Assembly: GCA_041665525.1 (NCBI GenBank)
Contig: JBAYIS010000001.1
Span: forward strand, 215,418-279,417
Length of the DNA stretch: 64,000 nucleotides
DNA from: Bacteroidota bacterium
Lineage (GTDB): Bacteria > Bacteroidota > Ignavibacteria > UBA10030 > UBA8401
Reading direction: 5' to 3'
Part shown: piece after piece, positions 15,552-35,226 of the stretch
How the letters are laid out: each line of letters begins with the position of its first letter
How positions within the stretch are numbered: the first letter of the stretch is position 1
Position numbers and translations under genes: made by a program
The notes under the pieces: generated by a model
Database searches by the model: none
Told to the model about the DNA's origin: nothing
Seen by the model: only the letters and a program-made list of their open reading frames with translations

Positions 15552-15552
15552 T

Positions 15553-17140: not shown

Positions 17141-17217
17141 AACAACAAAATAGAGACTTCTGAAAAGCTAACTGAGTTACTGGACGCGATGGTGTTTATC
17201 GGGACATCCATCCTCAT

Positions 17218-18105
17218 TTATTCAGTTTTTATCGCATCTTCATACGCTGTTTGATGCGCTTGATCCACCTGGATCAATAATTGGTAAACACTCTTGTCGC
17301 CGTACCCCTTGAACACTTCCGCTAATTCCCCATACTTCGTATCAAAAAAATTCTTAAAGAGTATTGCACGAGGATTCGAGCTTTGTTTTAATGTTACGAT
17401 GTTATTGATAAGGAAAAGCATATTTTCATACGCTTTTCCCGGCTTCGTTGCTTTCAGATCCAATCCTTTAAAGTGATAGGAATACCATCCCTCACGGAAC
17501 GGTTGGTTATTTGGATTCAGGATTTCTTCGAGAAGATTGTATTTGCTGTAATTCGATCCGGTTCCTCGATCCCATCCCGATGCATTGGAAGGTGCCTGGT
17601 TGCATAAGTTGAATGCTTTCCGGAAATATTCTGTACCGCTCAGTTTGTCATACGAATCATAATCAAATCCCAGAATAAGGTACACGTAGAAGTCCAAAAA
17701 ATCTGTCAGCGGATCATAGATTGCTTCATTCCTGAAAAGCGGTTGCCCATCCACGTAAACAAAATCCCATTTGTCATCAAAGATGCGAAGCATTGGAGTA
17801 TTCTTTGATGATCTATCCTTCCCGACGTAGATCGGACGGGAACTGCCGATAAAGGCCTGGGCCTTGTACGAATTGCCATCCGAGGCAGAAGTAAAAAAAA
17901 TATTGATCGTGCATTTTATTTTCTCTCCACCGAGATCATCTGTTGACCATTTCTGAGAATTAATGTAGTTTTCCACATCGCGTTCGAAATGAACCAGCTT
18001 TTCTTTCGCAGCAGAGACCTGATCGAAGTTTACCGAAACATCGCATTCTACTTGCGCATATCCTAAGAGCGGTACCGTAATAAAAATCATCAGCAGTCGT
18101 AGCAT
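17218..18105 (-). CDS. Secreted DUF4835-like protein
   Basis: It has a signal peptide, and its size (295 aa) and N-terminal pattern resemble DUF4835 proteins of the FCB group. Assigned from memory only. Confidence 0.5.
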   Translation of the reverse strand: MLRLLMIFITVPLLGYAQVECDVSVNFDQVSAAKEKLVHFERDVENYINSQKWSTDDLGGEKIKCTINIFFTSASDGNSYKAQAFIGSSRPIYVGKDRSSKNTPMLRIFDDKWDFVYVDGQPLFRNEAIYDPLTDFLDFYVYLILGFDYDSYDKLSGTEYFRKAFNLCNQAPSNASGWDRGTGSNYSKYNLLEEILNPNNQPFREGWYSYHFKGLDLKATKPGKAYENMLFLINNIVTLKQSSNPRAILFKNFFDTKYGELAEVFKGYGDKSVYQLLIQVDQAHQTAYEDAIKTE

Positions 18106-18128
18106 TTCACAACCTTTCAGGGAATGTT

Positions 18129-18944
18129 ATGCATCAATATAAAATTTTCACTCTCTTCTTTCAAGTTATTCTCACCGTAAACACACTCTACTGCGGATTT
18201 GAACGGACATCGCAGCCGACGCAGGTTTTTAGTAGAGGTATGTCAGGATCGGCCTTCTTTTCCGAACAGCAGGCATGGATAAACCCTGCATCTATTGCAC
18301 ATGTTCCGTCCTTTCGGACGAGTATGTTCTACTCACCGTCGCCGTTCCAGTTATCGCAGCTTTCGAATTATGGCGTGATAACATCAAGTCCGTTTTGGAT
18401 TGCATCGGCAGCAGTCGGCTTTTCTTCTTTTGGATTTTCGCTCTATCGGGAAAGTACCGGATCAATCGTTCTTGGTTCAGCGATCAATGAACATATCGCG
18501 GCGGGAGTTGGTATTCATTTGTGTCATCTTTCGATAGAAAAGTATGGATCATCAACCAAAGGTGTAATGGATATCGGTATGATCTATTCTCTCAATGAAC
18601 AGGTAAATATAGGACTGGTGTTGAATAACCTTTCCGGTGCATCGTTCGGCGGTGATGATGACATTCCCAGAGTGATTACTTCGGGCATTTCGTATTCATT
18701 TTCAGAACAAGCGGCGATCCATATGGATGTTGTTAAAGATGTACGGTTTGCCGCAGCGTATCGCGCTGGATTCGACATTCGCCTGCATGACTATATCGTC
18801 GTCAATGCCGGAACGCGTTCTGATGCATCACAACTGTGCGGAGGTATCGGGATTGTTATTCCCGATTGGCAGATCGACTACGGGATTACAACACATACCG
18901 AGCTTGGCCTGACGCATTCCATCGGCATTACATTTCATCCATAA
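18129..18944 (+). CDS. Hypothetical outer-membrane beta-barrel-like protein
   Basis: Signal-like N-terminus. Alternating hydrophobic/aromatic strands, Gly/Ser-rich, ending in ...GLTHSIGITFHP (aromatic near the terminus). Confidence 0.4.
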   Translation: MHQYKIFTLFFQVILTVNTLYCGFERTSQPTQVFSRGMSGSAFFSEQQAWINPASIAHVPSFRTSMFYSPSPFQLSQLSNYGVITSSPFWIASAAVGFSSFGFSLYRESTGSIVLGSAINEHIAAGVGIHLCHLSIEKYGSSTKGVMDIGMIYSLNEQVNIGLVLNNLSGASFGGDDDIPRVITSGISYSFSEQAAIHMDVVKDVRFAAAYRAGFDIRLHDYIVVNAGTRSDASQLCGGIGIVIPDWQIDYGITTHTELGLTHSIGITFHP

Positions 18945-18951
18945 AAAGAGA

Positions 18952-20892
18952 ATGAAAATGAAAATGTTCAAATATTATTTTCTCTTTTTCCCCCTCCTCA
19001 TACGCGCACAGAATACAGTCCATTCTCTGGACCAAGATTTGATGGAAGAGTTCATGAATTCTGATAGTGAAGAACAAGATGTGCAGGCAAAAGGAGAGGA
19101 ACTGGATTTCCTGCTTTCCCATCCCGTAAATATTTCCGAACCTCATTTTGATGAGTTGTTGAAGATACCGTTTGTCTCTCCGCTTCTTGCAGAATCGATT
19201 ATTCGATTTACCGATACCAACTCCGTTACGAAGATCAGTCAACTGGAGGATGTTTTTTTGATGACACCGGTTCTTTTAGCAAAGATCACTCCATTTATTA
19301 CCGTGGAGCAACGTGAAGCGAAAAAGAGTCTTTGGTCATCAATGCCGATTAAAGCGGTTTCACGTTCCAGGTTGGAACGACGATTTCAGGGAACGAAAGG
19401 ATTTGCTGAAGGGAAATACAGCGGGGATAGGAATGGAATATATCAGCGCATCCGTCTGGGGAATGCTGATTATGAACTGGCAGCTGTTTCGGAAAAGGAT
19501 GCAGGGGAGAATTATGCAAATGCATTCGTATCTGGTTACGTGAGCATACGGAAATTAGCAAATATAGAGGATCTTGTGATTGGGAATTTTATGATTGCTT
19601 CATCGCAAGGCATGGTTTTTTCCCGTTCGATGAAACCCGGCAAAGGGGCAAATGCTGCGGATCAGGCTATGCAAAAAGGAAAGAAAATTATCCCCGTCAC
19701 TTCGACGGATGAATTTCGTTTCTTCCAGGGTGCGGCAGCAAGGATACGGTACGATGGAATAAGCATGATCGGATTTTATTCGAAAAGAACTTTGCCTGCG
19801 TCCGTTGATCCGAATGGGTCGATAAAGAGTTTTTATACATCCGGATTGTACCGCACCTCCGATGAAAAAGAAAAAATAAATACTGTTGGTGAGGTTGTAA
19901 CGGGCGGTGTTCTGGAATACTCACCGGATGGAAAGTCAACAGTTGGTATGACAGCGCTGAATGTTCATTATTCAAAGTCACTTCCGCCAAATGTGCTTGA
20001 TCTTCACGGAAAGAGTTCACTTTCTGCGGGAAGTGTTTCCTGGCTTATTCCTCTTGCCGGATTCACTTCCTTTGGAGAAATTGCGTCGAACGATGGGAAA
20101 TCCTACAGCCGGTCCATTGGCGCCGCAATAAGTATTTCAAAATCAATTTCTGCAGGATATCATCATCGATCGTATTCCGGCAAATATCGTAATCCGTTTG
20201 CACATCCTTTCGGGGAGTTGAGCGATATCAGTGACGGAGAACAGGGGAACTATCTCGGTGTTGAATTCATGGTGGAAAAAGCTTCGATCAGTTTTTATGC
20301 GGATCATTTCACCCAGCCGGCGCGATCAGATGGTTTTCCGGCGTTTGGCAAGGAAACCTTTATCGCATGTTCTCTTCCTATCGGCCCTTCTTTGGAGTCG
20401 ATGATTCAATTACGTCGAAAGTCATTTTCCTCATCGGTAGAAAAAATTCAAACAAATTACCGGTTGACAAATAATATCAAAGTCTTCTCAGGATTAAGCA
20501 TTTCTCATAGGATAGAAGTCGTTACAGTAACTAGCGAGATTACTCAACCTCCTGAACATGGGACGTTGACATTTCTCGATGCATCATTTAATGATACACA
20601 GAATGGAATTCGGTTGAAATCCAGAATAGTATTTTTTGATACACACTCATACGATTCCCGTCTATATCAATATGAATCCGATGTTGCCGGGAATTATTCA
20701 AATCCGCCATTATATGGCAAAGGAATTCGTTGGTATCTGGTTGCAGGATACGAGATCATTGATAATTTCACACTGTCACTCAAATACTCTGAAACGAAAA
20801 AACTTCATGAAGTAGTACTGGGAAGCGGAGATGATGTAATCCGCGGAAACCTGGAGAGCCGTATCGCAATGCAATTAGATTTTCAGATGTAG
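18952..20892 (+). CDS. Large outer-membrane-type protein with N-terminal helix-hairpin-helix (ComEA-like) motif
   Basis: It has a signal peptide. NISEPHFDELLKIPFVSPLLAESIIRF resembles an HhH DNA-binding motif. The remaining ~500 aa is beta-strand-like and ends ...RIAMQLDFQM. Confidence 0.45.
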   Translation: MKMKMFKYYFLFFPLLIRAQNTVHSLDQDLMEEFMNSDSEEQDVQAKGEELDFLLSHPVNISEPHFDELLKIPFVSPLLAESIIRFTDTNSVTKISQLEDVFLMTPVLLAKITPFITVEQREAKKSLWSSMPIKAVSRSRLERRFQGTKGFAEGKYSGDRNGIYQRIRLGNADYELAAVSEKDAGENYANAFVSGYVSIRKLANIEDLVIGNFMIASSQGMVFSRSMKPGKGANAADQAMQKGKKIIPVTSTDEFRFFQGAAARIRYDGISMIGFYSKRTLPASVDPNGSIKSFYTSGLYRTSDEKEKINTVGEVVTGGVLEYSPDGKSTVGMTALNVHYSKSLPPNVLDLHGKSSLSAGSVSWLIPLAGFTSFGEIASNDGKSYSRSIGAAISISKSISAGYHHRSYSGKYRNPFAHPFGELSDISDGEQGNYLGVEFMVEKASISFYADHFTQPARSDGFPAFGKETFIACSLPIGPSLESMIQLRRKSFSSSVEKIQTNYRLTNNIKVFSGLSISHRIEVVTVTSEITQPPEHGTLTFLDASFNDTQNGIRLKSRIVFFDTHSYDSRLYQYESDVAGNYSNPPLYGKGIRWYLVAGYEIIDNFTLSLKYSETKKLHEVVLGSGDDVIRGNLESRIAMQLDFQM

Positions 20893-22075: not shown

Positions 22076-23413
22076 ATGGCAACATCCACTTTCAAGATCC
22101 TCGTTTCAATCCTCCTTATTCTTTTGGTGACAACAGTTTCCTTTGTTCCCGCATTGTTCAATGGATGGACAACGTGGGACGATGATGTCTATGTCGTCGA
22201 CAATCCTTCCGTGCAGCAAATATCCGCAGAGAGCCTTGAGAGAGTTTTTACCACACCGGTTAATGGATCGTATCTTCCGTTATCGATGATCTCTTATATG
22301 ATCGATTATCAAATCGGTGGATTCGATCCGAAAGTCTTTCATGCTACGAACGTCCTGTTCCACATCCTAAATTCCTGTTTGATGTTTTTTCTTATGTATC
22401 AATTAACAGGCAGCGTTCTAGCTTCGCTTGTCGGGGGACTACTGTTTGGTATTCACCCGATGCGCGTGGAATCTGTTGCATGGATATCGGCCAGGAAAGA
22501 TGTTCTCTCCATGTTTTTCTTCCTGCTTTCATCAATCTCCTACCTTCGCTATATCAGAGTCAAAAAACAATCATGGCTGACGGCGGCATTTATTCTTTTT
22601 GTCTGTGCAATTTTGTCCAAGATTATCGTTCTGACATTTCCGCTGATCTTGCTGTTGTATGATTTTTTAAAGAAAAGAAAAGTCGATCCGGGAATTGTGA
22701 TGGAGAAAATCCCATTTGCACTTGTCGCAGCGGCTTTTTCAGTGATCGGATTAATCGGCCAACAAAGTGTCGATGCTGTGAAACGCTCGGCCAGCATTCT
22801 GGAAAACGGGATTGTATCGCTGCACGGGATTATTTTCTACATCGAAAAGTTCTTTTTGCCTATAAAACTTTCCCATCTGTATCCATACCCGTCAGATCTT
22901 CCGTTACAGTTCATCGTGTATGCATTCATTGCAATTGTTGCTTTGATCGCACTGTGGAAATACCGCCGGAATCAAATTCTACTCTTTGGAATTTTGTTTT
23001 TTATTGTCTCACTTCTGCCGGTGCTGCAATTTGTCCGTTTCAGTCAGATTTTCGCTGCGGACCGATTTACATATTTTGCTTACATCGGATTGTTTTATAT
23101 CGCTGGAATGTATTCTGCTAAAGCGTGGGATTCGGGAAAGCGGCGAATGGTCATTACATTTCTGATAATCATTACGGCAGCGTGTTCGTATCTCACGTGG
23201 GAAAGATGCGAAGTGTGGAAGGACAGCAACACCCTGTGGAAGGATATGTTATCCAAGTATCCCGAAGCGATAAGTGAAAACAGTGTGCGGAAAGGACAAT
23301 ACTTATTTCCGATCCAGCCAGTCCAGCAGACCTGTGATAAACGTGAGAGGATGCGGTGGACATCCGGGAATAAACAAATCGACCGGGTGATCAGTAATGA
23401 ACTGGCGGTTTAA
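22076..23413 (+). CDS. TMTC/PMT-like polytopic membrane glycosyltransferase-family protein, apparently lacking the usual C-terminal TPR region
   Basis: N-terminal FNGWTTWDDDVYVVDNP motif and many TM helices. The last ~37 codons read through the antisense of the convergent ferredoxin-NuoB gene. Confidence 0.5.
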   Translation: MATSTFKILVSILLILLVTTVSFVPALFNGWTTWDDDVYVVDNPSVQQISAESLERVFTTPVNGSYLPLSMISYMIDYQIGGFDPKVFHATNVLFHILNSCLMFFLMYQLTGSVLASLVGGLLFGIHPMRVESVAWISARKDVLSMFFFLLSSISYLRYIRVKKQSWLTAAFILFVCAILSKIIVLTFPLILLLYDFLKKRKVDPGIVMEKIPFALVAAAFSVIGLIGQQSVDAVKRSASILENGIVSLHGIIFYIEKFFLPIKLSHLYPYPSDLPLQFIVYAFIAIVALIALWKYRRNQILLFGILFFIVSLLPVLQFVRFSQIFAADRFTYFAYIGLFYIAGMYSAKAWDSGKRRMVITFLIIITAACSYLTWERCEVWKDSNTLWKDMLSKYPEAISENSVRKGQYLFPIQPVQQTCDKRERMRWTSGNKQIDRVISNELAV

Positions 23414-24052
23414 TTCCGGTGAATCTTTGAAGATTCCGCCGGAAATAGCACATGCGCCGAAAAGGATGTTGATCTTTGGCGACGGAACAGCGTCATAACA
23501 AAGGAATGTTGCTTCCGCCATCGCCTTTGGTAACGGACCGGTGAGAACGATACCGTCCGCATGACGCGGCGATGCGACAAATTCTATCCCAAACCTTCCC
23601 ATATCAAAATTCACATTGCTCAATGCATTCAGTTCCAATTCGCATCCATTGCATCCTCCCGCAGATATTTGACGGAGTTTCAGCGACTTGCCGAAGTATT
23701 TCCGGATTTTTTCCGACGCGATTTCAGGAGTAATCCGTTTTTGAGTCCCGGTAACCACCAATTGCTCACGAGTACTGCATGCGAGATGATATTCATTGGT
23801 AAAATGGATCGCTTTTTCCGGGCACTGCTGTTCGCAAAGGGGGCAAAAGACACAGAGACCAAGGTCGATGGATAATGGTTCAAGTGAAATTGCATTTGTT
23901 GGACAAACCGTCTGACATTCCTTGCATCCGTCCGGACATTTCTCCGGGTGGAGTTCTGGCATGCCACGGAAGAGCGGAGGCAGCGATGCATGGTGGACAT
24001 CGTGAACGATTGGGTCGCCCTGAAGGACTCGCAGTTGGATACTTTCAATCAT
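23303..24052 (-). CDS. Fusion of a 2x[4Fe-4S] ferredoxin (HycF/HyfH/NuoI-like) with a NuoB/HycG-type small subunit
   Basis: The N-terminal half has CPDGCKECQTVCP and CVFCPLCEQQCP. The C-terminal half has GGCNGCELE, GACAISGG and IPGCPPHP (NuoB/HycG cluster ligands). Confidence 0.85.
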   Translation of the reverse strand: MIESIQLRVLQGDPIVHDVHHASLPPLFRGMPELHPEKCPDGCKECQTVCPTNAISLEPLSIDLGLCVFCPLCEQQCPEKAIHFTNEYHLACSTREQLVVTGTQKRITPEIASEKIRKYFGKSLKLRQISAGGCNGCELELNALSNVNFDMGRFGIEFVASPRHADGIVLTGPLPKAMAEATFLCYDAVPSPKINILFGACAISGGIFKDSPELNRQFITDHPVDLFIPGCPPHPLTFITGLLDWLDRK

Positions 24053-24064
24053 AAGAATACCTTG

Positions 24065-25546
24065 TTATAGATCATGTCCGGAATATGAGAGATCAAAACT
24101 TTTGTTACACAGCGGGAAATCGGAAATAGCTTCGCTTCTGAGCGCCAGTCCCAGACCGTACCAATTATGGAATGATGGATCCTTAATTTTATACCGTTTC
24201 CAATCCCCGCGTTCGTCCGTGAATGCGCTATGGACAATCTCACCGCGCCAACCTTCAACGATTGAGATCACTCCGCTCTCTTTAGCCCGCGGCTGCAGTT
24301 CATTAAAAATCGGTCCCGACGGCAGATTTTCCAGTTGCTCAAATATGAAACGGATGGACTCGTCGATCTCCAACGATCGAATGCGCGCCCGCGCAAACAC
24401 ATCGCCGGTGGACAGCGTGATTAACGGTAGGGGTGAATACCGGTAAGCGCCGTATGGAAACTGGCTGCGAGTATCAAGTTCGATTCCGCTAGCGCGGGCA
24501 GCCGGACCAACCATGCCGATGGATTTTGCCCACTCGCCGCTGACCGTTCCCGTATGGTCTAACCTGGCCAGCACACTGGTTGCATCAAACATAACAGTAT
24601 TGATCGTTGAAACATCTTTTTGAACGAGTGAAAGGTTTTTTTTCAATTGTTCCAGAGCGGAATCGGAAAGATCAAACCGGACTCCTCCCGGGACGATAAA
24701 ACCGCGTCCGAATCGTGATCCGCACAAAAGTGCAGAACTGTTGATCACCATTGTCCGCAATCTTCCGTAGGAGGCGGAACCGATCGCATATCCAACATCA
24801 TTGGCGATTCCCCCCAATCCTGCAAGGTGCATGGCGATACGCTCCAATTCTTCCGCAATCGAACGAAGGGATTGTGTCCGCAAACTGATAGTTGCACGGG
24901 ACAATGATTCGACTGCCATTGCATAAGCAATGGAGTGGCCGATGGTTGTATCACCGGTAATGGATTCACACAAAATACTCTGTTGATTGGGGGATGCTGT
25001 CAACATCATTTTTTCGATGCCGCGATGCTGATATCCCAGATTGATCTCCAGATGATACACCAGTTCGCCGTGACATTGAAAACGGAAATGTCCCGGTTCA
25101 ATCACGCCGGCGTGAATCGGTCCAACGGCAACTTCATGAACTTCCTCACCCTCCATTCGATACATTGAATACGGTTGATCATCCAGTACCACAGTCTGTT
25201 TCCTGACAGGCCGCAGCCAAGGATGTCCTTCCGGAATGATATGGTGGTTCTCAGCCAGTTCACATTCAAAGTAGTGTGTTTGATGATGTACACCGGCAAG
25301 GCTGTTGAATTTTCTCTGTGCTGCGGAAAATTTCGTTCCAATCAGATGTAATGATGAGGTTGACGGATTACTGAGCAAGGCAATCACGGTAGTATCCGGC
25401 TGCGACGACTCAAGACCGAACAAACCGATCATTCGTGCATGCGTCAGCATTGCATCCCGCAGCGTTCCCTCAAATTCCTGAACGGAGACGATCGGAATAT
25501 CCTTGATACGAAAGGGTTGATGATTTTGTGCATTCAATGTCTTCAT
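24065..25546 (-). CDS. NuoC-NuoD / HycE-like large subunit lacking all NiFe-ligand cysteines (Ehr-type)
   Basis: VGPIHAGVIEPGHFRF and LGYQHRGIEK are typical of group-4 large subunits. The L1 position reads ESITGDTTIGHSIAY. The C-terminus reads FDLSYSGHDL where DPCxxC is expected. Confidence 0.85.
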   Translation of the reverse strand: MKTLNAQNHQPFRIKDIPIVSVQEFEGTLRDAMLTHARMIGLFGLESSQPDTTVIALLSNPSTSSLHLIGTKFSAAQRKFNSLAGVHHQTHYFECELAENHHIIPEGHPWLRPVRKQTVVLDDQPYSMYRMEGEEVHEVAVGPIHAGVIEPGHFRFQCHGELVYHLEINLGYQHRGIEKMMLTASPNQQSILCESITGDTTIGHSIAYAMAVESLSRATISLRTQSLRSIAEELERIAMHLAGLGGIANDVGYAIGSASYGRLRTMVINSSALLCGSRFGRGFIVPGGVRFDLSDSALEQLKKNLSLVQKDVSTINTVMFDATSVLARLDHTGTVSGEWAKSIGMVGPAARASGIELDTRSQFPYGAYRYSPLPLITLSTGDVFARARIRSLEIDESIRFIFEQLENLPSGPIFNELQPRAKESGVISIVEGWRGEIVHSAFTDERGDWKRYKIKDPSFHNWYGLGLALRSEAISDFPLCNKSFDLSYSGHDL

Positions 25547-26991
25547 AATGTGATTCCAAAATCCTTTGAGATTTGTATGACGGTGTCGTACAGTTGTGCC
25601 GGCATGAACAATCCCAGCACAATCAACAGAAGAAGCAATGTGAATGATGCAGCATGGACAATATCGAATTTTTCCACTGCAAGCGGTTTATGGTTCTTCG
25701 GAGGTGCAGTATAGAGCATCTGAAAAACTGTTTTGCTCATCCCAACGAAGATGAAAAAGAGGAAAAACAGTACTGCAGCCAGCAGTAACGGTTTTGTCAT
25801 CAATCCCTGAAAGATCAACAGTTCGCTGAAGAAAATGCCAAACGGCGGCATCGCAATAATGGCGAAGAAACCGAAAAGGAAAAGCCAACCGGTCCACGGC
25901 ATGGTATTAAGCACATCCCAAACGGAGGTAACATCGCGTGACCGGTAGGTACGATGAATATTGCCGGCATTCAGGAAAAGAACGACTTTGGTCAATGAAT
26001 TATAAACCACATGTAGCATTGCTCCAACAAACGCAATACCCCCGGTACCGATGCCAAGCGTGATGAGACCGAGGTGTTCCACACTGGAATAGGCGAGCAT
26101 ACGCTTGTAATTGACCACTTTGAACATGAAGACAAAAGCGACAAAGAGAGAGAACATGCCGCCAATGATCATGATCGTGCGGGCAAAATCCGCAGTAGCA
26201 GTGGGTATCATAATTTGATACACTCGCAGCAAACCAAGCAATGCCGTTCCCCGCAAAGAACCGGACATTAAAGCTGCCGCCGGACTTGGCGCGTTGCTCG
26301 TTGCATCGATATCGCCGGGATGCATCGGCGCTATGCCGATCTTAGTGCTGAGTCCGACAAAGACGAAAATGAAACTTGCTTTTAGCCAGATCGGATTCAG
26401 GTGTGTGGCATAATGAGAGTAGGAAGAGATCAACAGTTGATGCCCCGAGAGAACGGTGCCGCTTGCAGAGAGAGAAAGAAAGAGGAATCCGATGAATGCA
26501 AATGCGATACCGACCGAGACCAGGAAGAGATATTTCCACATCGCTTCCAGAGATTCCTCGTCCCGGTAATAATAGACCAGCGGTGCAACGCTGAGTGTTG
26601 TTGCTTCCGATGCAACCCAGAACAAACCGAGGTGGTTGCTGATCAGTGCCAGCGTATTGGCGAAGAGATACAAATTCAGCATCATAAAATAGAGCAGCTT
26701 GCTCTTTTCTTCGTTCACCAGAGCCGGGCGGTTGAGATAGGAATACGAAACGAGCACTACCCAGAAATACACGTGGGAGAGAACAAGCAGGAATAATCTG
26801 CTCAATGCATCATAACGGATGAATTCATTTTCTTCAGGCCGAACCATCCCGGTGAAAATTGCATACGATACTGCCAGATGCAGAATTGCGATGACAAGAG
26901 AAACGGAAAACTGCACCAGTCTGTTCTTCACGAGATAGTTAATTGCAACACCTGCCAGTGGAAGTCCGGCGATAAAAAATAGTTCAGTCAT
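25543..26991 (-). CDS. NuoN/NuoM/HyfF-type antiporter-like membrane subunit
   Basis: 482-aa polytopic protein with proton-conducting-membrane-transporter family features (LAYSSVEHLG). It overlaps the downstream gene by 4 nt. Confidence 0.8.
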   Translation of the reverse strand: MTELFFIAGLPLAGVAINYLVKNRLVQFSVSLVIAILHLAVSYAIFTGMVRPEENEFIRYDALSRLFLLVLSHVYFWVVLVSYSYLNRPALVNEEKSKLLYFMMLNLYLFANTLALISNHLGLFWVASEATTLSVAPLVYYYRDEESLEAMWKYLFLVSVGIAFAFIGFLFLSLSASGTVLSGHQLLISSYSHYATHLNPIWLKASFIFVFVGLSTKIGIAPMHPGDIDATSNAPSPAAALMSGSLRGTALLGLLRVYQIMIPTATADFARTIMIIGGMFSLFVAFVFMFKVVNYKRMLAYSSVEHLGLITLGIGTGGIAFVGAMLHVVYNSLTKVVLFLNAGNIHRTYRSRDVTSVWDVLNTMPWTGWLFLFGFFAIIAMPPFGIFFSELLIFQGLMTKPLLLAAVLFFLFFIFVGMSKTVFQMLYTAPPKNHKPLAVEKFDIVHAASFTLLLLLIVLGLFMPAQLYDTVIQISKDFGITL

Positions 26992-27623
26992 TAATCTTTT
27001 AACCTCCCAAGGACGGACACGTCTTGTTTTGCGAAAGTAGAACTGATCTTGTTAATCGCGATCCCCATCAGGAAAACCACCACAAAGACATCCAACATTG
27101 CGCCGAGTTCCACCAGCGTCGGCATTTCTGCCGCCACGGATGTTCCGAACAGGAAAATACCGTTCTCCAGGATGAGGAAGCCGACAACGTGTACAATCAG
27201 TTTCTTTCTGAAAATGATTAAGTAAATACCGGTAATCATCGCCGAAAAAGCCGACGCAAACGGTATCGGTTCAATCGGTGTGAAACCGGAAAGAACGTGC
27301 GATGCAACGAAGATCGCCGAAAGCGATGCGACCGTCAACAATAAGAAATTGAACGGCTGTATGCTCGGCTCCACGATCCGTTTCACATCCAGCTCGATCA
27401 CAATCTTGTCGATAAAGCGGGGTATGACGATTGTCTTAATGATGAATGACATCACCGGAATGATAAGGATATGTACTGACAGATGATCGATGAATGGGAA
27501 TATCATAATCACCGAGAGCAAGACTCCCTGCATGCGAAGGATCGAAACATACGTCTTGATCCGTGATGTCACGACAAGATACAGGAGTGTGAGACAAAAA
27601 AGAATGCTAAGGACATTTTCCAT
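26991..27623 (-). CDS. HyfE-like small membrane subunit (NuoK-related)
   Basis: 210-aa hydrophobic protein located between the HycD-like and HyfF-like genes, as in the hyf operon. Confidence 0.6.
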   Translation of the reverse strand: MENVLSILFCLTLLYLVVTSRIKTYVSILRMQGVLLSVIMIFPFIDHLSVHILIIPVMSFIIKTIVIPRFIDKIVIELDVKRIVEPSIQPFNFLLLTVASLSAIFVASHVLSGFTPIEPIPFASAFSAMITGIYLIIFRKKLIVHVVGFLILENGIFLFGTSVAAEMPTLVELGAMLDVFVVVFLMGIAINKISSTFAKQDVSVLGRLKD

Positions 27624-27635
27624 ATGAATCTCTTG

Positions 27636-28565
27636 TTAGTGACGAACGAATGTGTAGATAAGTAAGTTCAATATGCCAATGGCGGTGGCAAATAACAGGT
27701 ACTGCGGAATAACTTTCATTTTAAACCGTGCGATCATTGTTTCAACCCATGCCACCACGGAAGAAAGCAGCACCAGGACGATCAGGAAAACCGAAAATCC
27801 AATCCAGTGATTCTGCATGCTAAACGGATTGAAGAAGGATGCTTCATAGACCGCATACACCATCAGTTTGATATAACTGGAATATTGATACAGAAACAAA
27901 TCGATGCCGGAATTATCGAGGATCATCACCTCGTGGATCATGGTCAGTTCCAGGTGCGTCGTCGGATCGTCCACCGGCATTCGGGAACATTCCGTGACCA
28001 TCAAAAAGAATGCGGAAATAGAACTGACGATGATAAACACAATCGATGTCGGATTATCAAGATGGATGGAATGATAGATGTCGTAGATCGACGTGTATCC
28101 GGTGATGAATGCCAGACTTCCGAGCGTAAAAAAGTAAATCGGTTCCGCAAACACTGCGAAGGTTGCTTCCCGGGCGGCACCCATTCCTTCAAATGAACTG
28201 CCGATATCCATCGCACCAAGGATTTGGAAGAATCTTGCCAAACCAAGCAGATATGCGAAGACAATGATGTCTCCGTTGAAACTCAGCAGCGGACGAACGT
28301 ATCCGATCGGCAGCATCAAACTGGAAATGAGGATAGCAGAAAACGACACGACCGGTGCCAGTCTGCTGACAAACGATGCAGTGGTGGCATAGATCGTTTC
28401 TTTCCGGCTTAACCGAAGTAGTTCGTAATATGGTTGCCAGACCGGTGCACCGATCCTGCCGGTTAATAAGGCTTTTTGTTTGTTGATCAGCCCGACCAGC
28501 AGCGGAGATACGCCGATGATGAAGAAAAAGGGAAGAAGTCCCTGAAAACTTAGAAGTATGTCCAT
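27636..28565 (-). CDS. NuoH/HycD/HyfC-type membrane subunit
   Basis: 309 aa. N-terminal LINKQKALLTGRIGAPVWQPYYELLRLSRK matches the HycD/NuoH signature (R.GP...QPY.D..K). Confidence 0.8.
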   Translation of the reverse strand: MDILLSFQGLLPFFFIIGVSPLLVGLINKQKALLTGRIGAPVWQPYYELLRLSRKETIYATTASFVSRLAPVVSFSAILISSLMLPIGYVRPLLSFNGDIIVFAYLLGLARFFQILGAMDIGSSFEGMGAAREATFAVFAEPIYFFTLGSLAFITGYTSIYDIYHSIHLDNPTSIVFIIVSSISAFFLMVTECSRMPVDDPTTHLELTMIHEVMILDNSGIDLFLYQYSSYIKLMVYAVYEASFFNPFSMQNHWIGFSVFLIVLVLLSSVVAWVETMIARFKMKVIPQYLLFATAIGILNLLIYTFVRH

Positions 28566-30601
28566 ACGATTGCAATCCCGCCGTACAGTAGTACGACAAT
28601 TAACATATATAAGATATAGTACCGGATATCGGTCCGGCTTAAAAATTCTACTGTATTAATTTTTGAAAGAATGTAAGAGTATAACGGCGCAACGAACTTT
28701 ACGTCAGAAAAATCCTGTGCATGTGAACTAAAGTGCGACCGGACAGGGAAAATCGATCTTGGCGGTACAACATGCTTTTCCCGATGCAGCATTGCAGAAG
28801 CGATATTGTTGATCTCATCAGCGTAAGACGAAGCGGTGTACTGCATCCGGGCAGTCTGCAGCGGATATCCGCATCCCCAGGCGGGAGCGACGCGCTGCCA
28901 GGCGTTCACTTTTTTCCAGACGATGATGGAACCGATGGTAACCAAAACGCTGGCAAACACCAGAGTGATTACGTCCCATTGAGCGAACATGGAGAACGGT
29001 TGGACAATTATCCCCCAGCGATTATAGGTAATGACGGTAGAAATCACTCCAAGAACCGATTGTGGATACACTCCGAACAGGATGCACAGTATTGCGAGCA
29101 TACCCAGGGAGAGATAGTCTGTAACTGAAACGTTGAACTGATGATTTCCTTTCCGTGCCGTACCAAGGAACATCACACTATTGATCTTTGTGAAACACGC
29201 CAACGCTAATCCTCCGACGAATGCCAAACCAACAGACATCAACAACATAAAAAGAGGAAAATATTCACCGAGGAGCGACGCTGTTTCAAAAAATCCTTTG
29301 TAGATCAAAAATTCGGACATGAAACCATTCAACGGAGGAATACCGCTGATAGCGATGGACCCCGTCAGAAAAAGGGCAACGAAGAACGGTGCGCGATGGA
29401 CAATGCCGCCCATTAATTCAATATCTCGCGTATGATAATTTTGATAAATAGTCCCGGTGCCGAGGAAAAGTAAACTTTTAAAGATTGCATGGTTAAACGT
29501 ATGGAAAAGTGCACCTCCGAATCCGAGCCAAATCAACGATTGCGCAGAATAGGATATGCCGATAACACCCAAACCGATGCCGATACCGATGATTCCGATA
29601 TTCTCGATGGAATGATAAGCGAGTAGTTTTTTGATATCGTGTTGCGCCAGCGCGTACCATACTCCGAAGATAGCACTGAAGAGGCTCGCTGCAAGAATCA
29701 TCAGACCCATCCACGCAGGAAGAGGGGAACAAAATTCTATCAGTCGAAATATCCCATAGATCCCTGTCTTGATCACAATACCGGAGAGGAAAGCGCTCAG
29801 TACTGTCGGTGCGATGGGATGAGCCCACGGCAGCCAGAAATGGAACGGCATAAATCCCGCTTTAATCCCGAAGGCTGTAAACCCGAACAGGCATGCAATA
29901 TAGAACATCCAACCATTGTCTGTAGTAAAGTGAAAATCGGTAAAATACCAACTCCCCGAATGCCGTTGGAGGATGAAAAAAAATATGTACAACACGAATG
30001 TGGCGGCGTGGGTCGTACAGAAATATATGAAACTCCCTTTTTGGACTTCCGGTTTTTCCTTCTCCAACAGCATTCCAAGATAGGCCATCAACGTCATCAA
30101 TTCCCAGAAGATGAGAAAGGCAATTGCATGATTTGCGAGAACCAGCAATTGCGTCGACAGCAGCAGCATCGAAAAGATTGCAAGGTAAGCACGGACCGGC
30201 ATACCCCGTTGCAAATAACGCTGAATGTACGTTCGGGTGGAGAGAACGATCGGAATTGAGACTGTTGCGATAACAAGCAAGAAATACAGCCCGAGTCCGT
30301 CAGCACGGAAAAACTTCTCCCATTGTGGTATATCAGAAATAACCGAAAGTATTTTCGGAAGTATAAGAATGCGATTGACGGCAAAAATGAGCATTAAGGA
30401 CAATCCCACAATGAGAACAGCAGTGTATATTGATAATGCCCGCAGTATCGGTCGTACGGTTACTGCGATTATCGAACCGGCAAAAAAGAGAACGCATCCT
30501 ATGATGAAGAAATAGTCCACGATTATTGGAGTAAATGACTCATGAAATTCTTTTCCATTAAATAAATATCGAAAGTAGTAAATAGAACAACAGCACTGCA
30601 A
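28550..30601 (-). CDS. HyfB/HycC/NuoL-type antiporter-like subunit, copy 3 (start uncertain)
   Basis: LAYHSIENIG, FHTFNHAIFKSLLFLG and the C-terminal WGCGY...MQYTASSYADE extension. The N-terminal ORF extension overlaps the upstream paralogue by 44 nt. Confidence 0.8.
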   Translation of the reverse strand: MQCCCSIYYFRYLFNGKEFHESFTPIIVDYFFIIGCVLFFAGSIIAVTVRPILRALSIYTAVLIVGLSLMLIFAVNRILILPKILSVISDIPQWEKFFRADGLGLYFLLVIATVSIPIVLSTRTYIQRYLQRGMPVRAYLAIFSMLLLSTQLLVLANHAIAFLIFWELMTLMAYLGMLLEKEKPEVQKGSFIYFCTTHAATFVLYIFFFILQRHSGSWYFTDFHFTTDNGWMFYIACLFGFTAFGIKAGFMPFHFWLPWAHPIAPTVLSAFLSGIVIKTGIYGIFRLIEFCSPLPAWMGLMILAASLFSAIFGVWYALAQHDIKKLLAYHSIENIGIIGIGIGLGVIGISYSAQSLIWLGFGGALFHTFNHAIFKSLLFLGTGTIYQNYHTRDIELMGGIVHRAPFFVALFLTGSIAISGIPPLNGFMSEFLIYKGFFETASLLGEYFPLFMLLMSVGLAFVGGLALACFTKINSVMFLGTARKGNHQFNVSVTDYLSLGMLAILCILFGVYPQSVLGVISTVITYNRWGIIVQPFSMFAQWDVITLVFASVLVTIGSIIVWKKVNAWQRVAPAWGCGYPLQTARMQYTASSYADEINNIASAMLHREKHVVPPRSIFPVRSHFSSHAQDFSDVKFVAPLYSYILSKINTVEFLSRTDIRYYILYMLIVVLLYGGIAIVWTYF

Positions 30602-32672
30602 TCGAAAAACTGATATAGACCTGAATCTTTCCGGCTTGCAGCCATGTGAATCTGCCGGTCGTCCAATGAAATGCAGTCATCAAAGGGGAAATAATTTTGT
30701 ACAGAACAAAATCCCGGGTAGTGGTTCGAAATGTTGACGGCTGCGGGAACGAATATATGGGAAGTGTGATCTCTTTTTCAACATTCAGCGCTGTGCTGGC
30801 GATTGTCACCATCTCATCTGAAAATGAAGTGCCGGAATATTGCATTCGGGAAGTTGGGAATTCATAACCGCAACCCCATGCCCGGGCGATTCGCTGCTGC
30901 ATGCTCAATTTCTTCCATCCGATTAAAATCACAACGGTGACCAGCACACTCAGAAAGACCAGTGACATCACATCCCATTGCGCAAACATAGCGTACGGTT
31001 GAATGCGGATTCCCCAATGATTAAATGCGATCACCGAAGAGATAGTGTTCAGCAACGATTGTGGGAAAACACCGAATAGAATGCAGAAAAACGCCAGGAT
31101 ACCCAATGCAATGTATTCGGTTGCTGAAACAGTAAAGGTAACGCGGTCAGTCCGCGCCGAACCCAGGAACATCACCCCGTTGACTTTCGTGAATGCTGCC
31201 AGTGCTAATCCGCCGACAAAGGCTAATCCTACCGACATTAACAACATGAAGAGCGGAAAATATTTGCCGAGGACTGAAGCGGATTCCAGAAATCCTTTAT
31301 AGATCAAAAATTCGGACATGAAACCGTTGAGCGGGGGAATGCCGCAGATAGCGATGGATCCGATAAGGAATAAGCCGGTGAACCAAGGCGCCCGGTGGAC
31401 GATTCCTCCCATCAGATCGATACGCCGCGTATGATAATTCCTGTAGATAACACCGGATCCGAGGAAAAGTAAACTCTTAAAGATGGCATGATTGAATGTG
31501 TGAAAAAGTGCACCGCCAAATCCAAGCCAGACAAGTGATTGAACGGAATACGCGACGCCGATTACGCCGAGGCCAATCCCGATTCCGATAATGCCGACAT
31601 TTTCGATGGAGGAATAAGCGAGCATCCGTTTGATATCCGTTTGAGCAAGTGCATTCCAAATACCGAAGATGCCGGTGAATATTCCGATCCCGATCATGCC
31701 CAGTCCGATCCATGCTGAAAGCGGTGAACAGAATTCAACGATTCGGAAAATTCCGTATATACCGGTTTTCAGAATTACCCCGGAAAGAAAAGCACTCAGA
31801 ATTGTTGGCGCTATGGGATGAGCCATCGGCAGCCAGAAATGGAACGGCATAAAGCCTGCTTTAATGCCGAATCCCATCAAACCGAATAGACAGACGATAT
31901 AGAAGACCGCGCCGCTCTCCGGTGTGATATGAAAACTGCTGAACATCCAGCTGCCGGAATGCTCATGCAGAAGAAAGAAAAAGATGTAGAGAAAAAATGT
32001 TGCAACATGTGTTGTTACAAAATAAATGAGGCTTCCATGCTGCACTTCTTCTTTCTCTTTGTCCAGAAGCATTCCCAGATACGCTGTGAGTGTCATCATT
32101 TCCCACAGGACGAGGAATGCAATTGCGTGTGTTGACAGAACCAATAATTGTGTTGCGAGAAACATCACCGCGAATGCGGCGCAAAAAGCACGGACAGCTG
32201 ACTCTTTATGAAGATACGACAGAAGATATGAATATGACGCTAACACCGTCGGTATGGCTGATACAGTAATAACCAGCAGAAAAAAAAGGGCCAGTCCGTC
32301 TGCTTGAAAGAAAATAGAGATTGAAGGGAACAGCGAAAACACCGGTGTGATAGTCGGGAGCGACAGGATTTGAATTAACGCGAAAGAGAAGTTTAGCGAC
32401 AGTCCTGCAATAAGGATCACCACATAAATCGTCAGCGCCCGTTTAAGAGGACGGATGAACAATGCACCCACTGCACCGATCAGAAGGAGACTACATCCTA
32501 TTGTAAATAAAACATCCACAAAACGTCCTATAGTATGAGGAAGAACGGCTTTCGTAAAAGAAAAGCGCGTGCCGATGCAAACTGTTATAAATAAAATGCC
32601 AAATATAAATAGAATATTAGAACAACAATGGAAAACGTGACATAAATCTGTATTTGACTTGACTGGAGCCAT
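30558..32672 (-). CDS. HyfB/HycC/NuoL-type antiporter-like subunit, copy 2 (start uncertain)
   Basis: Collinear with copy 3 over nearly its full length (for example MGGIVHRAP and GIPPLNGFMSEFLIYKGF are identical). The ORF start overlaps copy 1 by 88 nt, so the real start is probably internal or non-ATG. Confidence 0.8.
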   Translation of the reverse strand: MAPVKSNTDLCHVFHCCSNILFIFGILFITVCIGTRFSFTKAVLPHTIGRFVDVLFTIGCSLLLIGAVGALFIRPLKRALTIYVVILIAGLSLNFSFALIQILSLPTITPVFSLFPSISIFFQADGLALFFLLVITVSAIPTVLASYSYLLSYLHKESAVRAFCAAFAVMFLATQLLVLSTHAIAFLVLWEMMTLTAYLGMLLDKEKEEVQHGSLIYFVTTHVATFFLYIFFFLLHEHSGSWMFSSFHITPESGAVFYIVCLFGLMGFGIKAGFMPFHFWLPMAHPIAPTILSAFLSGVILKTGIYGIFRIVEFCSPLSAWIGLGMIGIGIFTGIFGIWNALAQTDIKRMLAYSSIENVGIIGIGIGLGVIGVAYSVQSLVWLGFGGALFHTFNHAIFKSLLFLGSGVIYRNYHTRRIDLMGGIVHRAPWFTGLFLIGSIAICGIPPLNGFMSEFLIYKGFLESASVLGKYFPLFMLLMSVGLAFVGGLALAAFTKVNGVMFLGSARTDRVTFTVSATEYIALGILAFFCILFGVFPQSLLNTISSVIAFNHWGIRIQPYAMFAQWDVMSLVFLSVLVTVVILIGWKKLSMQQRIARAWGCGYEFPTSRMQYSGTSFSDEMVTIASTALNVEKEITLPIYSFPQPSTFRTTTRDFVLYKIISPLMTAFHWTTGRFTWLQAGKIQVYISFSIAVLLFYLLLSIFI

Positions 32673-34561
32673 TTAAAACGATCCGTAAACCAGGCCAGAC
32701 CCGTCATGCACGGCTTCACGATCTTAAAAAGGATGAAATCCTGCACATTGGTTCTGAATCTGCTGGGCAATGGGAATATGACATGCGAAATGCTGACCTC
32801 ATTCTCTGCGGTCAATGCCTTACCGGCAATGTTGACTATCGTATCGGAAAAGGAGGTTCCTGTATATTGCATTCTCACGGACTGTCCGGGATAACCGCAT
32901 CCCCATGGCAAACTGGTGCGCGATGAATTACGGACGATTATTTTGTTCTTCCAGACCATCAACAAAGAGATGATTAACAGAACACCGAAGGCAGTCAGTC
33001 CGACGGTGTGCACTGTTTCCACAGATGTACTCATAGTTTGAATATGACTTGTTGGAAAGAGTCCGGAAAATATTGTGACACTCATTCCGACGATCCATTC
33101 GGGAAAGATTCCCAAGAGAACAACGATAGCGGTCAACGAAAGAAGAGAGATCAATTCTGCTGAATTCATGCGCAGCGGTTGTAGTGGCATGGATTTTTCT
33201 CTGCCAAGAAAGATCATAGAGAATGTTTTAGAAAATGCGACGACTGCCAATCCACCGACGAATGCAAGAATGACAGCGGCAATAAGCATGAAGAATGGGA
33301 AGTATCCATGTAAAACATTGGACGCTTCAAAAAAACTGCTGAAGATTAAGAATTCGGAAGCAAATCCATTGAGCGGAGGAAGTCCGGAGATTGCGAGCGA
33401 TCCTGTCAAAACTATTCCGCCGAAAAGTGGTGCTGATTTCATTAGTCCGCCCATCTTTTCCATGTTGCGGTGATGAAAATATCGTTGGATCGTTCCTGCA
33501 CTCATAAATAATAGTGATTTGAAAACGAAATGATTGAGTGTTTGGAACAATGCTCCGGATAATCCGAGAAATGTAACGAACGGTTGTTGATATGCTATGC
33601 CGAACATTGAAACGGAAAGAGATAGTCCAATGATCCCTATGTTTTCCACAGAGGAATAGGCGAGCATCCGCTTCAGGTCCTTTTGCGTTAACGCATTCCA
33701 AATTCCCATTACTGCTGTTCCACCTGATACGGCGAGCAGTGCTGAGGCATAAAAATGATCTGTTGGCTGAATCCAAGTGATCAATCGGATCAGTCCGTAG
33801 ATCCCTGTCTTTGGCATAATAGCGGATAATGCTGCCGAAATATGTGTTGGAGCAACAGGATATGCTTCTGGTTTCCAAAAATGGAACGGCATGAATCCGG
33901 CTTTCATTCCAAAGCCGATGAATCCTGTCCAAAATACCGTTGAAATCACGGCGGGGAGAGCGGCGGGTATGGAGAAATGTGCAAATTCCCAGCTTCCTGT
34001 CTGCCAATGTAGAAGAATGAACATTATATAGAGGAAAAGAGTCCCGATATGTGTTGCCACAAAGAAGATCAGGCTTCCTCTTTGCACTTCATTCTTTTCC
34101 CGTTCAAGAAGGATTGAAAGATACCCGGAAAGCGCCATAATCTCCCACGCGGTCAGGAAGAGAAACGCATGTCCGGCAACAACAACCAACTGCATGGAAA
34201 AGAACAGCAGTACCGTTGCGACAATTGTCGGTTTCAATGATCGGTGGTACGCATGCGGTGTCAATTCACCGATGCCATTAATAGAAACGATGATACCGCC
34301 GATTTGGATGATACCGAGAAAAAAGAGGGAGAGAGGATCGAAATGCAATGCGATTGTCCCGAATCCCGGGTGGATAAACAATGGGACATCGAATGGAACC
34401 GTTTGGACAAATGCCAGGATGGTAAATACAAGACCGAACGACATCGCAGTTATGATCGACCCATGCACTACGCGGTTCAGCAACAGTTGATTGTGAGTCA
34501 CCGCTGCAGCAACAAGGGAAAGGACCAAGATGAAACCGTCAATAAAAAAAAACTCGATCAT
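32585..34561 (-). CDS. HyfB/HycC/NuoL-type antiporter-like subunit, copy 1
   Basis: LAYSSVENIG, FQTLNHFVFKSLLFMSAG and WGCGYPGQSVRMQYTGTSFSD. The start overlaps the EIIA-like gene stop by 4 nt. Confidence 0.8.
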   Translation of the reverse strand: MIEFFFIDGFILVLSLVAAAVTHNQLLLNRVVHGSIITAMSFGLVFTILAFVQTVPFDVPLFIHPGFGTIALHFDPLSLFFLGIIQIGGIIVSINGIGELTPHAYHRSLKPTIVATVLLFFSMQLVVVAGHAFLFLTAWEIMALSGYLSILLEREKNEVQRGSLIFFVATHIGTLFLYIMFILLHWQTGSWEFAHFSIPAALPAVISTVFWTGFIGFGMKAGFMPFHFWKPEAYPVAPTHISAALSAIMPKTGIYGLIRLITWIQPTDHFYASALLAVSGGTAVMGIWNALTQKDLKRMLAYSSVENIGIIGLSLSVSMFGIAYQQPFVTFLGLSGALFQTLNHFVFKSLLFMSAGTIQRYFHHRNMEKMGGLMKSAPLFGGIVLTGSLAISGLPPLNGFASEFLIFSSFFEASNVLHGYFPFFMLIAAVILAFVGGLAVVAFSKTFSMIFLGREKSMPLQPLRMNSAELISLLSLTAIVVLLGIFPEWIVGMSVTIFSGLFPTSHIQTMSTSVETVHTVGLTAFGVLLIISLLMVWKNKIIVRNSSRTSLPWGCGYPGQSVRMQYTGTSFSDTIVNIAGKALTAENEVSISHVIFPLPSRFRTNVQDFILFKIVKPCMTGLAWFTDRFKWLQSSQIQIYVTFSIVVLIFYLYLAFYL

Positions 34562-35226
34562 CGTTTATGCTGTTCCTCAAACGTAGCGATGATGGAAATT
34601 AGATCCTGATACGCGGCGCGCTGTTCCAGTGCCTGGCATATCTCTTTTTTTATGAGAAGATAACTGACGTGCGCAAGAAGGCTTAAATGTTGTTTGATCG
34701 TCTGCGAAATTATCAGTATCAGCGTATGCACCGGTTTCCCATCAAGAGAGTTCAGTGATAGAGCTTTTTTCGGGAAGAAGAAATGCACCAGCGGTTTGTC
34801 TCGTCCGATCACCAGCGGGATTCTCGGATGAGGAAGGCTGATACCGTTACCGATAGCAGTGGACATCAGTTGTTCCCGGCTCTTCAGTAGTTGGACAACA
34901 ACATCCTTATCCACCGAAGCATCGAACAATGCAAGATTCGTCATTTGCTCGATGTAGTGTGATTCCGTGAAATCGCAATTGTAGAAAATGGATTGTACAT
35001 CCAGTAACGGCAGCAAACTTTTAATCTGGTATTCCACAAAATGGCGGCTGCCGGAAATATTGAGCGGCATGTTTCTTCCCAATGCCCATTCAATCACTTT
35101 ATCTTTGTTGAACACGACTCTGTCCTGAATCACCTGATGAGGGATCTCCTTTGATTTCACCAGATTCACGATCTCTTTTTCGGACAGGACTAAGAATTCC
35201 GCGACATCCTTAATTTTTAGGTCCAC
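34558..35226 (-). CDS. HTH (excisionase/MerR-like HTH_17) + PTS EIIA-Ntr (PtsN-like) domain regulator
   Basis: The N-terminus IKDVAEFLVLSEKEIVNLVKSKEIPHQVIQDRVVFNKDKVIEWAL is HTH_17-like. The C-terminal part has the EIIA type-2 signature GNGISLPHPR with the phosphorylatable His. Confidence 0.7.
   Translation of the reverse strand: MDLKIKDVAEFLVLSEKEIVNLVKSKEIPHQVIQDRVVFNKDKVIEWALGRNMPLNISGSRHFVEYQIKSLLPLLDVQSIFYNCDFTESHYIEQMTNLALFDASVDKDVVVQLLKSREQLMSTAIGNGISLPHPRIPLVIGRDKPLVHFFFPKKALSLNSLDGKPVHTLILIISQTIKQHLSLLAHVSYLLIKKEICQALEQRAAYQDLISIIATFEEQHKR

Follow-up and report, generated by a model that had tools for sequence, protein, structure and literature searches.

The 64,000-nucleotide (nt) window analyzed here, by which we mean the whole stretch of DNA under study, comes from a Bacteroidota bacterium (GCA_041665525.1, contig JBAYIS010000001.1, positions 215,418-279,417). 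On its minus strand lies an operon of nine genes (23303-35226), which overlap or abut throughout. One of them encodes a protein that aligns from end to end with HycE, the large subunit of a group 4 [NiFe] hydrogenase, and that has lost all four cysteines of the nickel-iron (NiFe) site. This protein is probably EhrL, the large subunit of the energy-converting-hydrogenase-related (Ehr) complex, an already described family, and the nine genes together are likely to encode a whole Ehr complex and its regulator.

The translation of the EhrL gene contains VGPIHAGVIEPGHFRF (residues 141-156), LGYQHRGIEK (170-179), and LCESITGDTTIGHSIAY (192-208), exactly as quoted in the original prediction, and its C-terminal end reads SFDLSYSGHDL-stop. 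In Pfam, PF00346 (Complex1_49kDa, the NuoD family; 5e-38) is the only profile reported for EhrL at E <= 1e-3, and the nickel-dependent hydrogenase profile PF00374 gave no match; in NCBIfam, EhrL matches NuoD and FpoD, in all cases far under the curated cutoffs. Among solved structures searched with HMMER, the top match is Escherichia coli HycE (7z0s_E, E = 7e-46), followed by Pyrococcus furiosus MbhL and Thermus Nqo4 (both 1e-33), and then by Aquifex NuoCD and MbsL (1.6e-23). The HycE alignment is free of gaps at both NiFe motifs: HycE 'drvCgiCgfahstay' stands opposite EhrL 'esiTgdTtighsiay', and 'sldpCysC' opposite 'sfdlSysG'. HycE C241, C244, C531, and C534 therefore correspond to EhrL T197, T200, S487, and G490 (the chain index of 7z0s_E is offset by 12 from the HycE residue numbering of PMC9474812), which confirms the proposed substitution of the four ligands by T, T, S, and G; the nucleotide ranges given for the two sites were right to within one codon. 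The final residue of EhrL falls at the position of the last residue in mature HycE, so that no C-terminal extension is present for an endopeptidase to cleave. Five cysteines occur elsewhere in the protein (95, 158, 193, 275, and 480). Judged by its ligand positions, which are altered family-wide, EhrL does not appear to be a functional group 4 [NiFe] hydrogenase.

The same replacement is seen in near and distant relatives. In the close set, consisting of 117 full-length EhrL relatives (58-100% identity, mostly from metagenome-assembled genomes (MAGs) of Ignavibacteria/Bacteroidota), no change occurs at E194, S195, G198, D199, H204, S487, G490, or D492-L493, A or T stands at position 197 and T or S at 200, and the stop position and C-terminal end are identical in every member. 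At 149 of the 493 EhrL positions, conservation reaches at least 98%. The β1-β2 loop is invariant at H145, E150, G152, H153, F154, R155, and F156 and almost so at G147 and P151, with either I or V at positions 144 and 148. For the wide set, an exhaustive HMMER scan of a library clustered at 50% yielded 6113 relatives, from which the top 150 were taken; 130 of these cover all four ligand positions. The cysteine set is absent from 123 of the 130 representatives, which show patterns such as ATSG, SSSG, ASSG, and STSG and share the replacement motifs E-x-x-[A/S/T/C]-G-D-[S/T] and S-Y-x-G-x-D-L-stop. The other seven, low in the ranking, are CCCC, with canonical 'ERxCGxC' and 'LCYSCxDR' motifs.

Among the 123 Cys-less representatives, G198 is kept in 115, D199 in 116, S487 in 117, G490 in 116, D492 in 119, and E150 in 107; 99 have S or T at position 200, and A, S, C, or T occurs at 197. 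The nearest true hydrogenases have Cys at 200, 487, and 490. D199, an Asp gained between the two former N-terminal Cys positions, is V or A in these hydrogenases; D250 (110/123) is mostly Gly, D456 (107/123) is Ser, and the C-terminal L493 (105/123) is Arg. As a separate observation, cysteines at positions 158, 275, 480, and 489 are each found in 42-65% of the Cys-less representatives (52 of 123 at position 489); the window protein has Cys at the first three and Ser at 489. These cysteines are largely missing from the nearest true hydrogenases, one of seven having Cys at 275.

An approximate, midpoint-rooted neighbor-joining tree groups the Cys-bearing hydrogenases into a single clade and places the window protein deep within the Cys-less sequences. 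A scan of one genome per GTDB species confirmed at least 598 loci, and the best 80 of them come from Bacteroidota/Ignavibacteria, Spirochaetota, Verrucomicrobiota, Planctomycetota, Omnitrophota, Gemmatimonadota, Myxococcota, Melainabacteria, and Geobacterales. In these 80, the gene order regulator, HyfB (one to three copies), H, E, F, L, S is kept across phyla. These sequence comparisons indicate that the loss of the NiFe ligands is a trait of the family and not a private event of this bacterium, and that the metal site disappeared long ago, its place being taken by a conserved polar pocket (G198-D199-T200, S487, G490, and the fixed C-terminus). Two of the loci carry paired Ehr-type operons, at 13332-20563 in locus L024 (a Geobacteraceae MAG) and at 209-9917 in locus L069 (a Verrucomicrobia MAG). 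The large subunits of the second operons are only 33-34% identical to the window protein, and they therefore probably come from the other Cys-less clade ('ER.SGD').

The gene for the partner small subunit, EhrS, starts 12 nt downstream of the EhrL gene, and its product combines a HycF/NuoI-like and a HycG/MbhJ/NuoB-like part. The former carries the motifs of two [4Fe-4S] ferredoxin-type clusters (C39-x3-C43-x2-C46-x3-C50-P and C67-x2-C70-x2-C73-x3-C77-P). In the latter, the four ligands of the proximal [4Fe-4S] cluster (C134, C137, C201, and C231) align with those of MbhJ and HycG, in line with the earlier claim that the partner keeps its four cluster cysteines. EhrS matches Oxidored_q6 and Fer4 in Pfam and, among solved structures, MbhJ (1.5e-31), HycG (2.4e-27), and HycF (5.9e-12). 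The proximal motif, GGCNGCE, is of the CxxC type found in the membrane-bound hydrogenase (MBH) as well as in formate hydrogenlyase (FHL), as opposed to the tandem CC of complex I (GLACCAVE in NDUFS7) and the shortened three-Cys motif of the membrane-bound sulfane reductase (MBS) (PMC7684303, PMC8165549). In an alignment of the window protein with 77 relatives, the 12 ligand cysteines are kept in 66-72 of the 78 sequences; the non-ligand Cys92 and Cys185 are not kept. The proposal that the metal site is gone while the wire leading to it remains is thus well borne out, and the iron-sulfur (FeS) wire to the former NiFe pocket appears to be retained under selection.

Much of the catalytic surroundings of the lost metal has been retained as well. 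We mapped the functional residues of HycE (PMC9474812) onto EhrL through the HMMER alignment. H188, which contacts the ND3-like loop, corresponds to H145; E193, the β1-β2 proton donor, to E150; H284, R395, and E437 of the proton path to H240, R351, and E393; and the canopy residues R478, D529, and S283 to R434, D485 (Asn in most of the family), and M239. Except for M239 and D485, these residues are strongly conserved in the Cys-less family, and the hydrogenase proton relay (E150, H240, R351, E393, and R434) is conserved. In other words, the family looks like a group 4 hydrogenase in which the metal ligands alone have been exchanged.

The remaining genes of the operon encode a membrane anchor, antiporter-like membrane subunits, and a presumed regulator of the operon (Table 1). 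Among solved structures, the anchor matches HycD (8.5e-23), MbhM (6e-20), and MbsM (9e-7) and nothing else; neither ND1 nor Nqo8 was matched in this sequence search. All three HyfB-like proteins keep the Glu of transmembrane helix (TM) 5, the Lys of TM7 and TM8, and the Glu of TM12, together with an ND3-like WGCGY loop at the C-terminus. In FHL, this loop is in contact with the β1-β2 loop of HycE (PMC9474812) and docks at the interface between the large subunit and the anchor. The three HyfB genes stand in tandem (28550-34561); a single one is present in the nearest relatives (L001-L003), and one or two occur in other phyla. The three copies may either all belong to one complex or represent alternatives.

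Table 1. Features of the Ehr operon and of the EhrL protein (positions in the window).
Feature	Position	Strand	Remarks
EhrS, fused small subunit	23303..24052	-	HycF/NuoI-like N-terminal part (~20-100) and HycG/MbhJ/NuoB-like C-terminal part (~104-244)
EhrL, large subunit	24065..25546	-	493 residues; NuoC-like domain (~1-110) fused to HycE/NuoD-like part (~135-493); NiFe ligands absent
EhrL, former C-terminal NiFe motif	24068..24088	-	S487-Y-S-G490-H-D-L493; S487-G490 at 24077-24088; stop codon at 24065-24067
EhrL, former N-terminal NiFe motif	24947..24958	-	T197-G198-D199-T200 in place of C-G-x-C (HycE alignment)
EhrL, hydrogenase-type β1-β2 loop	25079..25114	-	H145-A-G-V-I-E150-P-G-H153-F-R-F
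HyfF-like antiporter-type membrane subunit	25543..26991	-	NCBIfam hydrogenase 4 subunit F, 2e-78, under curated cutoff; syntenic in related loci
HyfE-like membrane subunit	26991..27623	-	NCBIfam hydrogenase 4 membrane subunit, 1e-16, under curated cutoff; weak Pfam Oxidored_q2
HycD/HyfC/MbhM-like membrane anchor (NuoH superfamily)	27636..28565	-	Pfam NADHdh, 6e-29
HyfB/HycC-like copy 3	28550..30601	-	NCBIfam hydrogenase 4 subunit B, 4e-138, under curated cutoff; HycC, 5e-60
HyfB/HycC-like copy 2	30558..32672	-	60% identical to copy 3
HyfB/HycC-like copy 1	32585..34561	-	39-43% identical to copies 2 and 3
Helix-turn-helix (HTH_17) and phosphotransferase system (PTS) enzyme IIA (EIIA-2, PtsN-like) protein	34558..35226	-	First gene of the operon; Pfam, NCBIfam

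A homolog of the HTH-EIIA protein lies upstream on the same strand in 38 of the 54 loci with enough upstream DNA, in several phyla, and its place at the head of the operon suggests control by a phosphorylation signal of the PTS-Ntr type. Sigma-54 promoter matches upstream of the operon are no commoner than expected by chance, and none in 35227-35900 is convincing. A gene for a 135-residue regulator of the MerR family (35210-35617, minus strand) shares 17 nt with the start of the HTH-EIIA gene; no counterpart is found at the matching position in the 80 related loci, where the sole match, a weak one, lies elsewhere in L045. The flanks of these 80 loci contain no recurrent electron-input partner such as FdhA or NuoEF. 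In seven of them, including L001 (2550-4262), L002 (2579-4291), L036, L039, L041, and L055, the operon is adjoined by a gene for a multi-pass permease of about 570-640 residues, judged by eye to be SulP-like, which the window does not have.

In the window, the operon is flanked by housekeeping genes. Among open reading frames of at least 150 residues up to position 54763, where the scan of the 64-kb window ended, and in the operon itself, there are no hyp or other maturation genes and no fdh or nuoEF genes. At 214-6022, on the minus strand, genes for an NrfD-like membrane protein, a 4Fe-4S dicluster protein, a molybdopterin oxidoreductase, a multiheme c3/c7-type cytochrome, and a GCV_H-domain protein form a cluster that looks like a quinone-linked respiratory module of the Psr/Qrc/ACIII type; it is followed by a histidine kinase and a sigma-54 response regulator (6812-10397). 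The window also contains an isolated ATP synthase alpha/beta family gene (11588-12997, plus strand, 469 residues) without adjoining ATPase subunits, which could be of the FliI/type III secretion type or related to the V-type, and, amid the housekeeping genes, a family-B DNA polymerase gene (52406-54763, minus strand, 785 residues) with DNA_pol_B and exonuclease domains.

The name Ehr was reportedly in use by 2004-2005 (Coppi and colleagues); the founding papers cited for it are Coppi 2005 and Marreiros et al. 2013 (BBA 1827:198). Ehr complexes are also known from Sulfobacillus, comammox Nitrospira, Margulisbacteria, and ammonia-oxidizing archaea. As described in several studies, Ehr gene clusters resemble those of group 4 hydrogenases, encode large subunits without the RxCGxCxxxH and DPCxxCxxH/R motifs, and are of unknown function (PMC4378227, PMC10284858, PMC6349859, PMC10432482); the HydDB classifier was trained to keep them out of the hydrogenases (PMC5037454). 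What the original prediction had presented as a remarkable individual case is therefore the defining trait of a large, described family. In Geobacter sulfurreducens, the products of the GSU0739-45 cluster include a NuoL-like EhrA, a HyfE-like EhrC, EhrL, and EhrS; proteomics detected every subunit of the cluster, at higher abundance with formate (PMC7894505).

The window operon agrees with Ehr in its NuoD/group-4-like large subunit without the two CxxC motifs of the NiFe site, its NuoB-like FeS small subunit, its NuoH-like anchor, its NuoL/HyfB-, HyfE-, and HyfF-like subunits, and the absence of NuoEFG. Homologs in Geobacterales (Geomonas limicola, L034; Geobacter sp., L048; Pelobacter, L016) are syntenic and about 45% identical to the window protein, and L016 and L034 contain the same seven structural genes as GSU0739-45 in the same order; from this we infer kinship with G. 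sulfurreducens EhrL. The fusion of HycF with HycG and the HTH-EIIA gene at the head of the operon, of which we found no mention in the Ehr literature, founding papers aside, are family-wide features, whereas the triplicated HyfB and the MerR gene are specific to this locus.

Among complexes of solved structure, the closest is FHL/hydrogenase-4 (7z0s), which ranks first in matches to the L, H, and B subunits; for the small subunit it ranks second, behind MbhJ. The two share the NuoC-NuoD fusion, the Glu of the β1-β2 loop, the canopy Arg, the proton path, the CxxC proximal motif, and the ND3-like loop on HyfB/HycC. The window complex differs from FHL in the replacement of the four NiFe cysteines, in Met239 for Ser283, in having no cleavable C-terminal extension and no HycB or FdhF partner, and in the fusion of HycF and HycG. 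MBS is likewise a group 4 descendant without NiFe in which the pocket beside the proximal cluster has been repurposed (PMC7684303). However, MbsL keeps two of the four cysteines and has no β1-β2 Glu, whereas EhrL keeps none and has E150; the MBS proximal cluster has three Cys ligands and a free Fe, whereas that of EhrS has four with MBH spacing (PMC7684303); and EhrL is far less similar to MbsL than to HycE, as the E values above indicate. A sulfane reductase of the MBS type was rejected on the four-Cys cluster, the lack of residual NiFe cysteines, and the presence of E150.

Our best reading of these sequence features is that Ehr is probably a ferredoxin-linked, ion-translocating oxidoreductase that reduces an acceptor other than protons. 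Reduced ferredoxin, which would be the simplest choice given its role in Ech and MBH, or another soluble low-potential donor, would pass electrons to the HycF-like domain and on to the proximal cluster. This cluster would use them, along with protons supplied by the relay (E150), to reduce an acceptor bound in the former place of NiFe. Turnover would drive the HycD-like and antiporter-like subunits to translocate H+ or Na+, as happens in MBH, FHL, MBS, and complex I, and H2 would be neither made nor used. The lack of a recurrent, dedicated electron-input gene in the 80 loci fits a soluble donor. A precedent is MBS, in which the proximal cluster reduces the substrate directly in a pocket without NiFe (PMC7684303), and the Ehr subunits of Geobacter are detected as proteins whose levels shift with the electron donor (PMC7894505). 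As for the acceptor, menaquinone in the membrane or another hydrophobic molecule is our tentative first choice; an unknown soluble or sulfur-type compound reduced directly by the proximal cluster is a somewhat doubtful candidate; and it is rather improbable that there is no catalytic acceptor at all and that the complex is a redox-gated antiporter.

Several points weigh against the reading of Ehr as such an oxidoreductase, or against parts of it. The assignment of any acceptor to Ehr is a guess, and in the Ehr literature, founding papers aside, we found no experimental assignment of a substrate. In a search with the Geomonas homolog, G. sulfurreducens EhrL is not among the matches listed, whose names are all generic ('hydrogenase', 'NADH-quinone oxidoreductase subunit C') and never EhrL. 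An AlphaFold2 model of EhrL from a 59-sequence alignment (mean predicted local distance difference test score (pLDDT) 74, predicted template modeling score 0.78) is confident in the NuoC-like domain and the helical core, and Foldseek searches with it confirm the overall fold (HycE, template modeling scores 0.77/0.72, and, next in rank, the fused NuoCD proteins from E. coli and Aquifex). The pLDDT falls below 50, however, at residues 112-120, 125-173, and 459-493, which include the β1-β2 loop and the C-terminal motif and would normally pack against the small and membrane subunits. This is just where the pocket lies, and the model is unreliable there. With regard to a quinone acceptor, Ehr has been described in lineages reported to be without quinone biosynthesis (Riflemargulisbacteria, PMC6349859), and the family is also present in a Gastranaerophilales MAG (L045). 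In the HMMER alignment with Thermus Nqo4, moreover, Tyr87 of the quinone site stands opposite EhrL G198, which is invariant in the close relatives, and His38 opposite I149/E150, in a hydrogenase-type loop that is two residues longer. Together with the CxxC proximal cluster and the HycD/MbhM-like anchor, the missing Tyr87 and His38 appear to argue against a quinone site of the complex I style.

These last points bear directly on the first alternative, namely a ferredoxin:menaquinone oxidoreductase in which the former NiFe pocket is a quinone site that works like that of NuoD with other residues; we regard it as somewhat unlikely. The original prediction had likened the arrangement to the transition from hydrogenase to quinone site in NuoD and had asked for the His/Tyr equivalents of Nqo4. 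The broad evolutionary theme is indeed the same as that from hydrogenase to complex I: NuoD/Nqo4 with NuoB/Nqo6 has also lost all NiFe cysteines and has an FeS wire that ends at the pocket, and the canopy and proton-path residues common with complex I are kept (R434, H240, E393, and R351; PMC9474812). Nqo4 D139, moreover, stands opposite D250, the sole complex-I-like pocket residue found, kept in the 110 of 123 representatives mentioned above; MbhL, too, has Asp there. G198 and G490 would leave open space in the pocket, and the NrfD-type cluster in the window suggests that the organism probably has a quinone pool. At the level of residues, however, the likeness to the quinone site fails: a Gly stands in the place of Tyr87, His38 is without an equivalent, the redox-Bohr His169 is replaced by Gly280, the proximal cluster is CxxC and not CC (PMC8165549), the anchor is, by its sequence matches, not ND1-like, and there is no NADH module.

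According to the second alternative, which is fairly improbable, the FeS module is a structural or redox-sensing lid on a regulated, Mrp-like cation/proton antiporter without a terminal acceptor. Four antiporter-like subunits with intact charged residues and the lack of a recurring partner oxidoreductase gene in the 80 loci would suit such a complex, and the conserved PtsN-like EIIA protein encoded in the operon is suggestive. PtsN homologs control K+ transport in enterobacteria. A passive lid, however, would need less than what is conserved across phyla (12 FeS ligands, the Glu that donates protons, the Arg of the canopy, and the new pocket Asp), and true Mrp antiporters function without such a module (PMC7684303).

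Third, it is very unlikely that EhrL has remained a hydrogenase whose metal site uses relocated ligands or ligands other than cysteine. Many family members do have Cys at 489 (52 of 123) or 197 (11 of 123), and the close clade conserves C158, C275, and C480. A metal site rebuilt from relocated cysteines was nevertheless rejected, as no alternative set of four is conserved family-wide and no EhrL cysteine is invariant in the wider family: C95 is Arg in most members; C158, C275, and C480 are kept in 69, 61, and 80; and C193, tallied in the close set only, is Cys in 41 of 117. The window protein has Ser at 489, and no hyp or maturation gene was found among the window reading frames scanned. Assembly of NiFe(CN)2CO on O-ligands is not known. 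HydDB and others also keep Ehr apart from the hydrogenases (PMC5037454).

Finally, the gene could be a pseudogene in decay, or its C-terminus an artifact of sequencing or of a frameshift. No support was found for either; this alternative has next to no probability and is refuted by the intact frames of genes that overlap or abut along the whole operon, by the C-terminus and stop shared with all 117 relatives, and by pocket residues that are among the most conserved of the protein.

The window thus adds no new principle, because Ehr has already been described. What the family comparison adds is that the pocket is strongly selected, that the proton relay is kept, that an Asp has been gained, and that the hallmarks of complex I and of MBS are both missing. 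We speculate, and no more than tentatively, that the polar pocket (G198-D199-[S/T]200, S487, G490, D492-L493, and the Ehr-specific D250 and D456), supplied by the intact three-cluster wire and the hydrogenase proton relay, may represent a type of active site new to the complex I superfamily, for the proton-coupled reduction of an acceptor other than H+, a quinone bound in the complex I style, or a polysulfide bound in the MBS style, with the EIIA regulator as a switch. Ehr is spread very widely among bacteria, as the number of species-level loci from this one scan indicates, and its hosts include culturable bacteria (Geobacter, Geomonas, and Citrifermentans). The public labels of the Cys-less relatives are 'hydrogenase', 'hydrogenase large subunit', 'Ni,Fe-hydrogenase III large subunit', and 'NADH-quinone oxidoreductase subunit C', and none bears an Ehr name; metagenomic surveys of hydrogen metabolism can therefore miscount these proteins.

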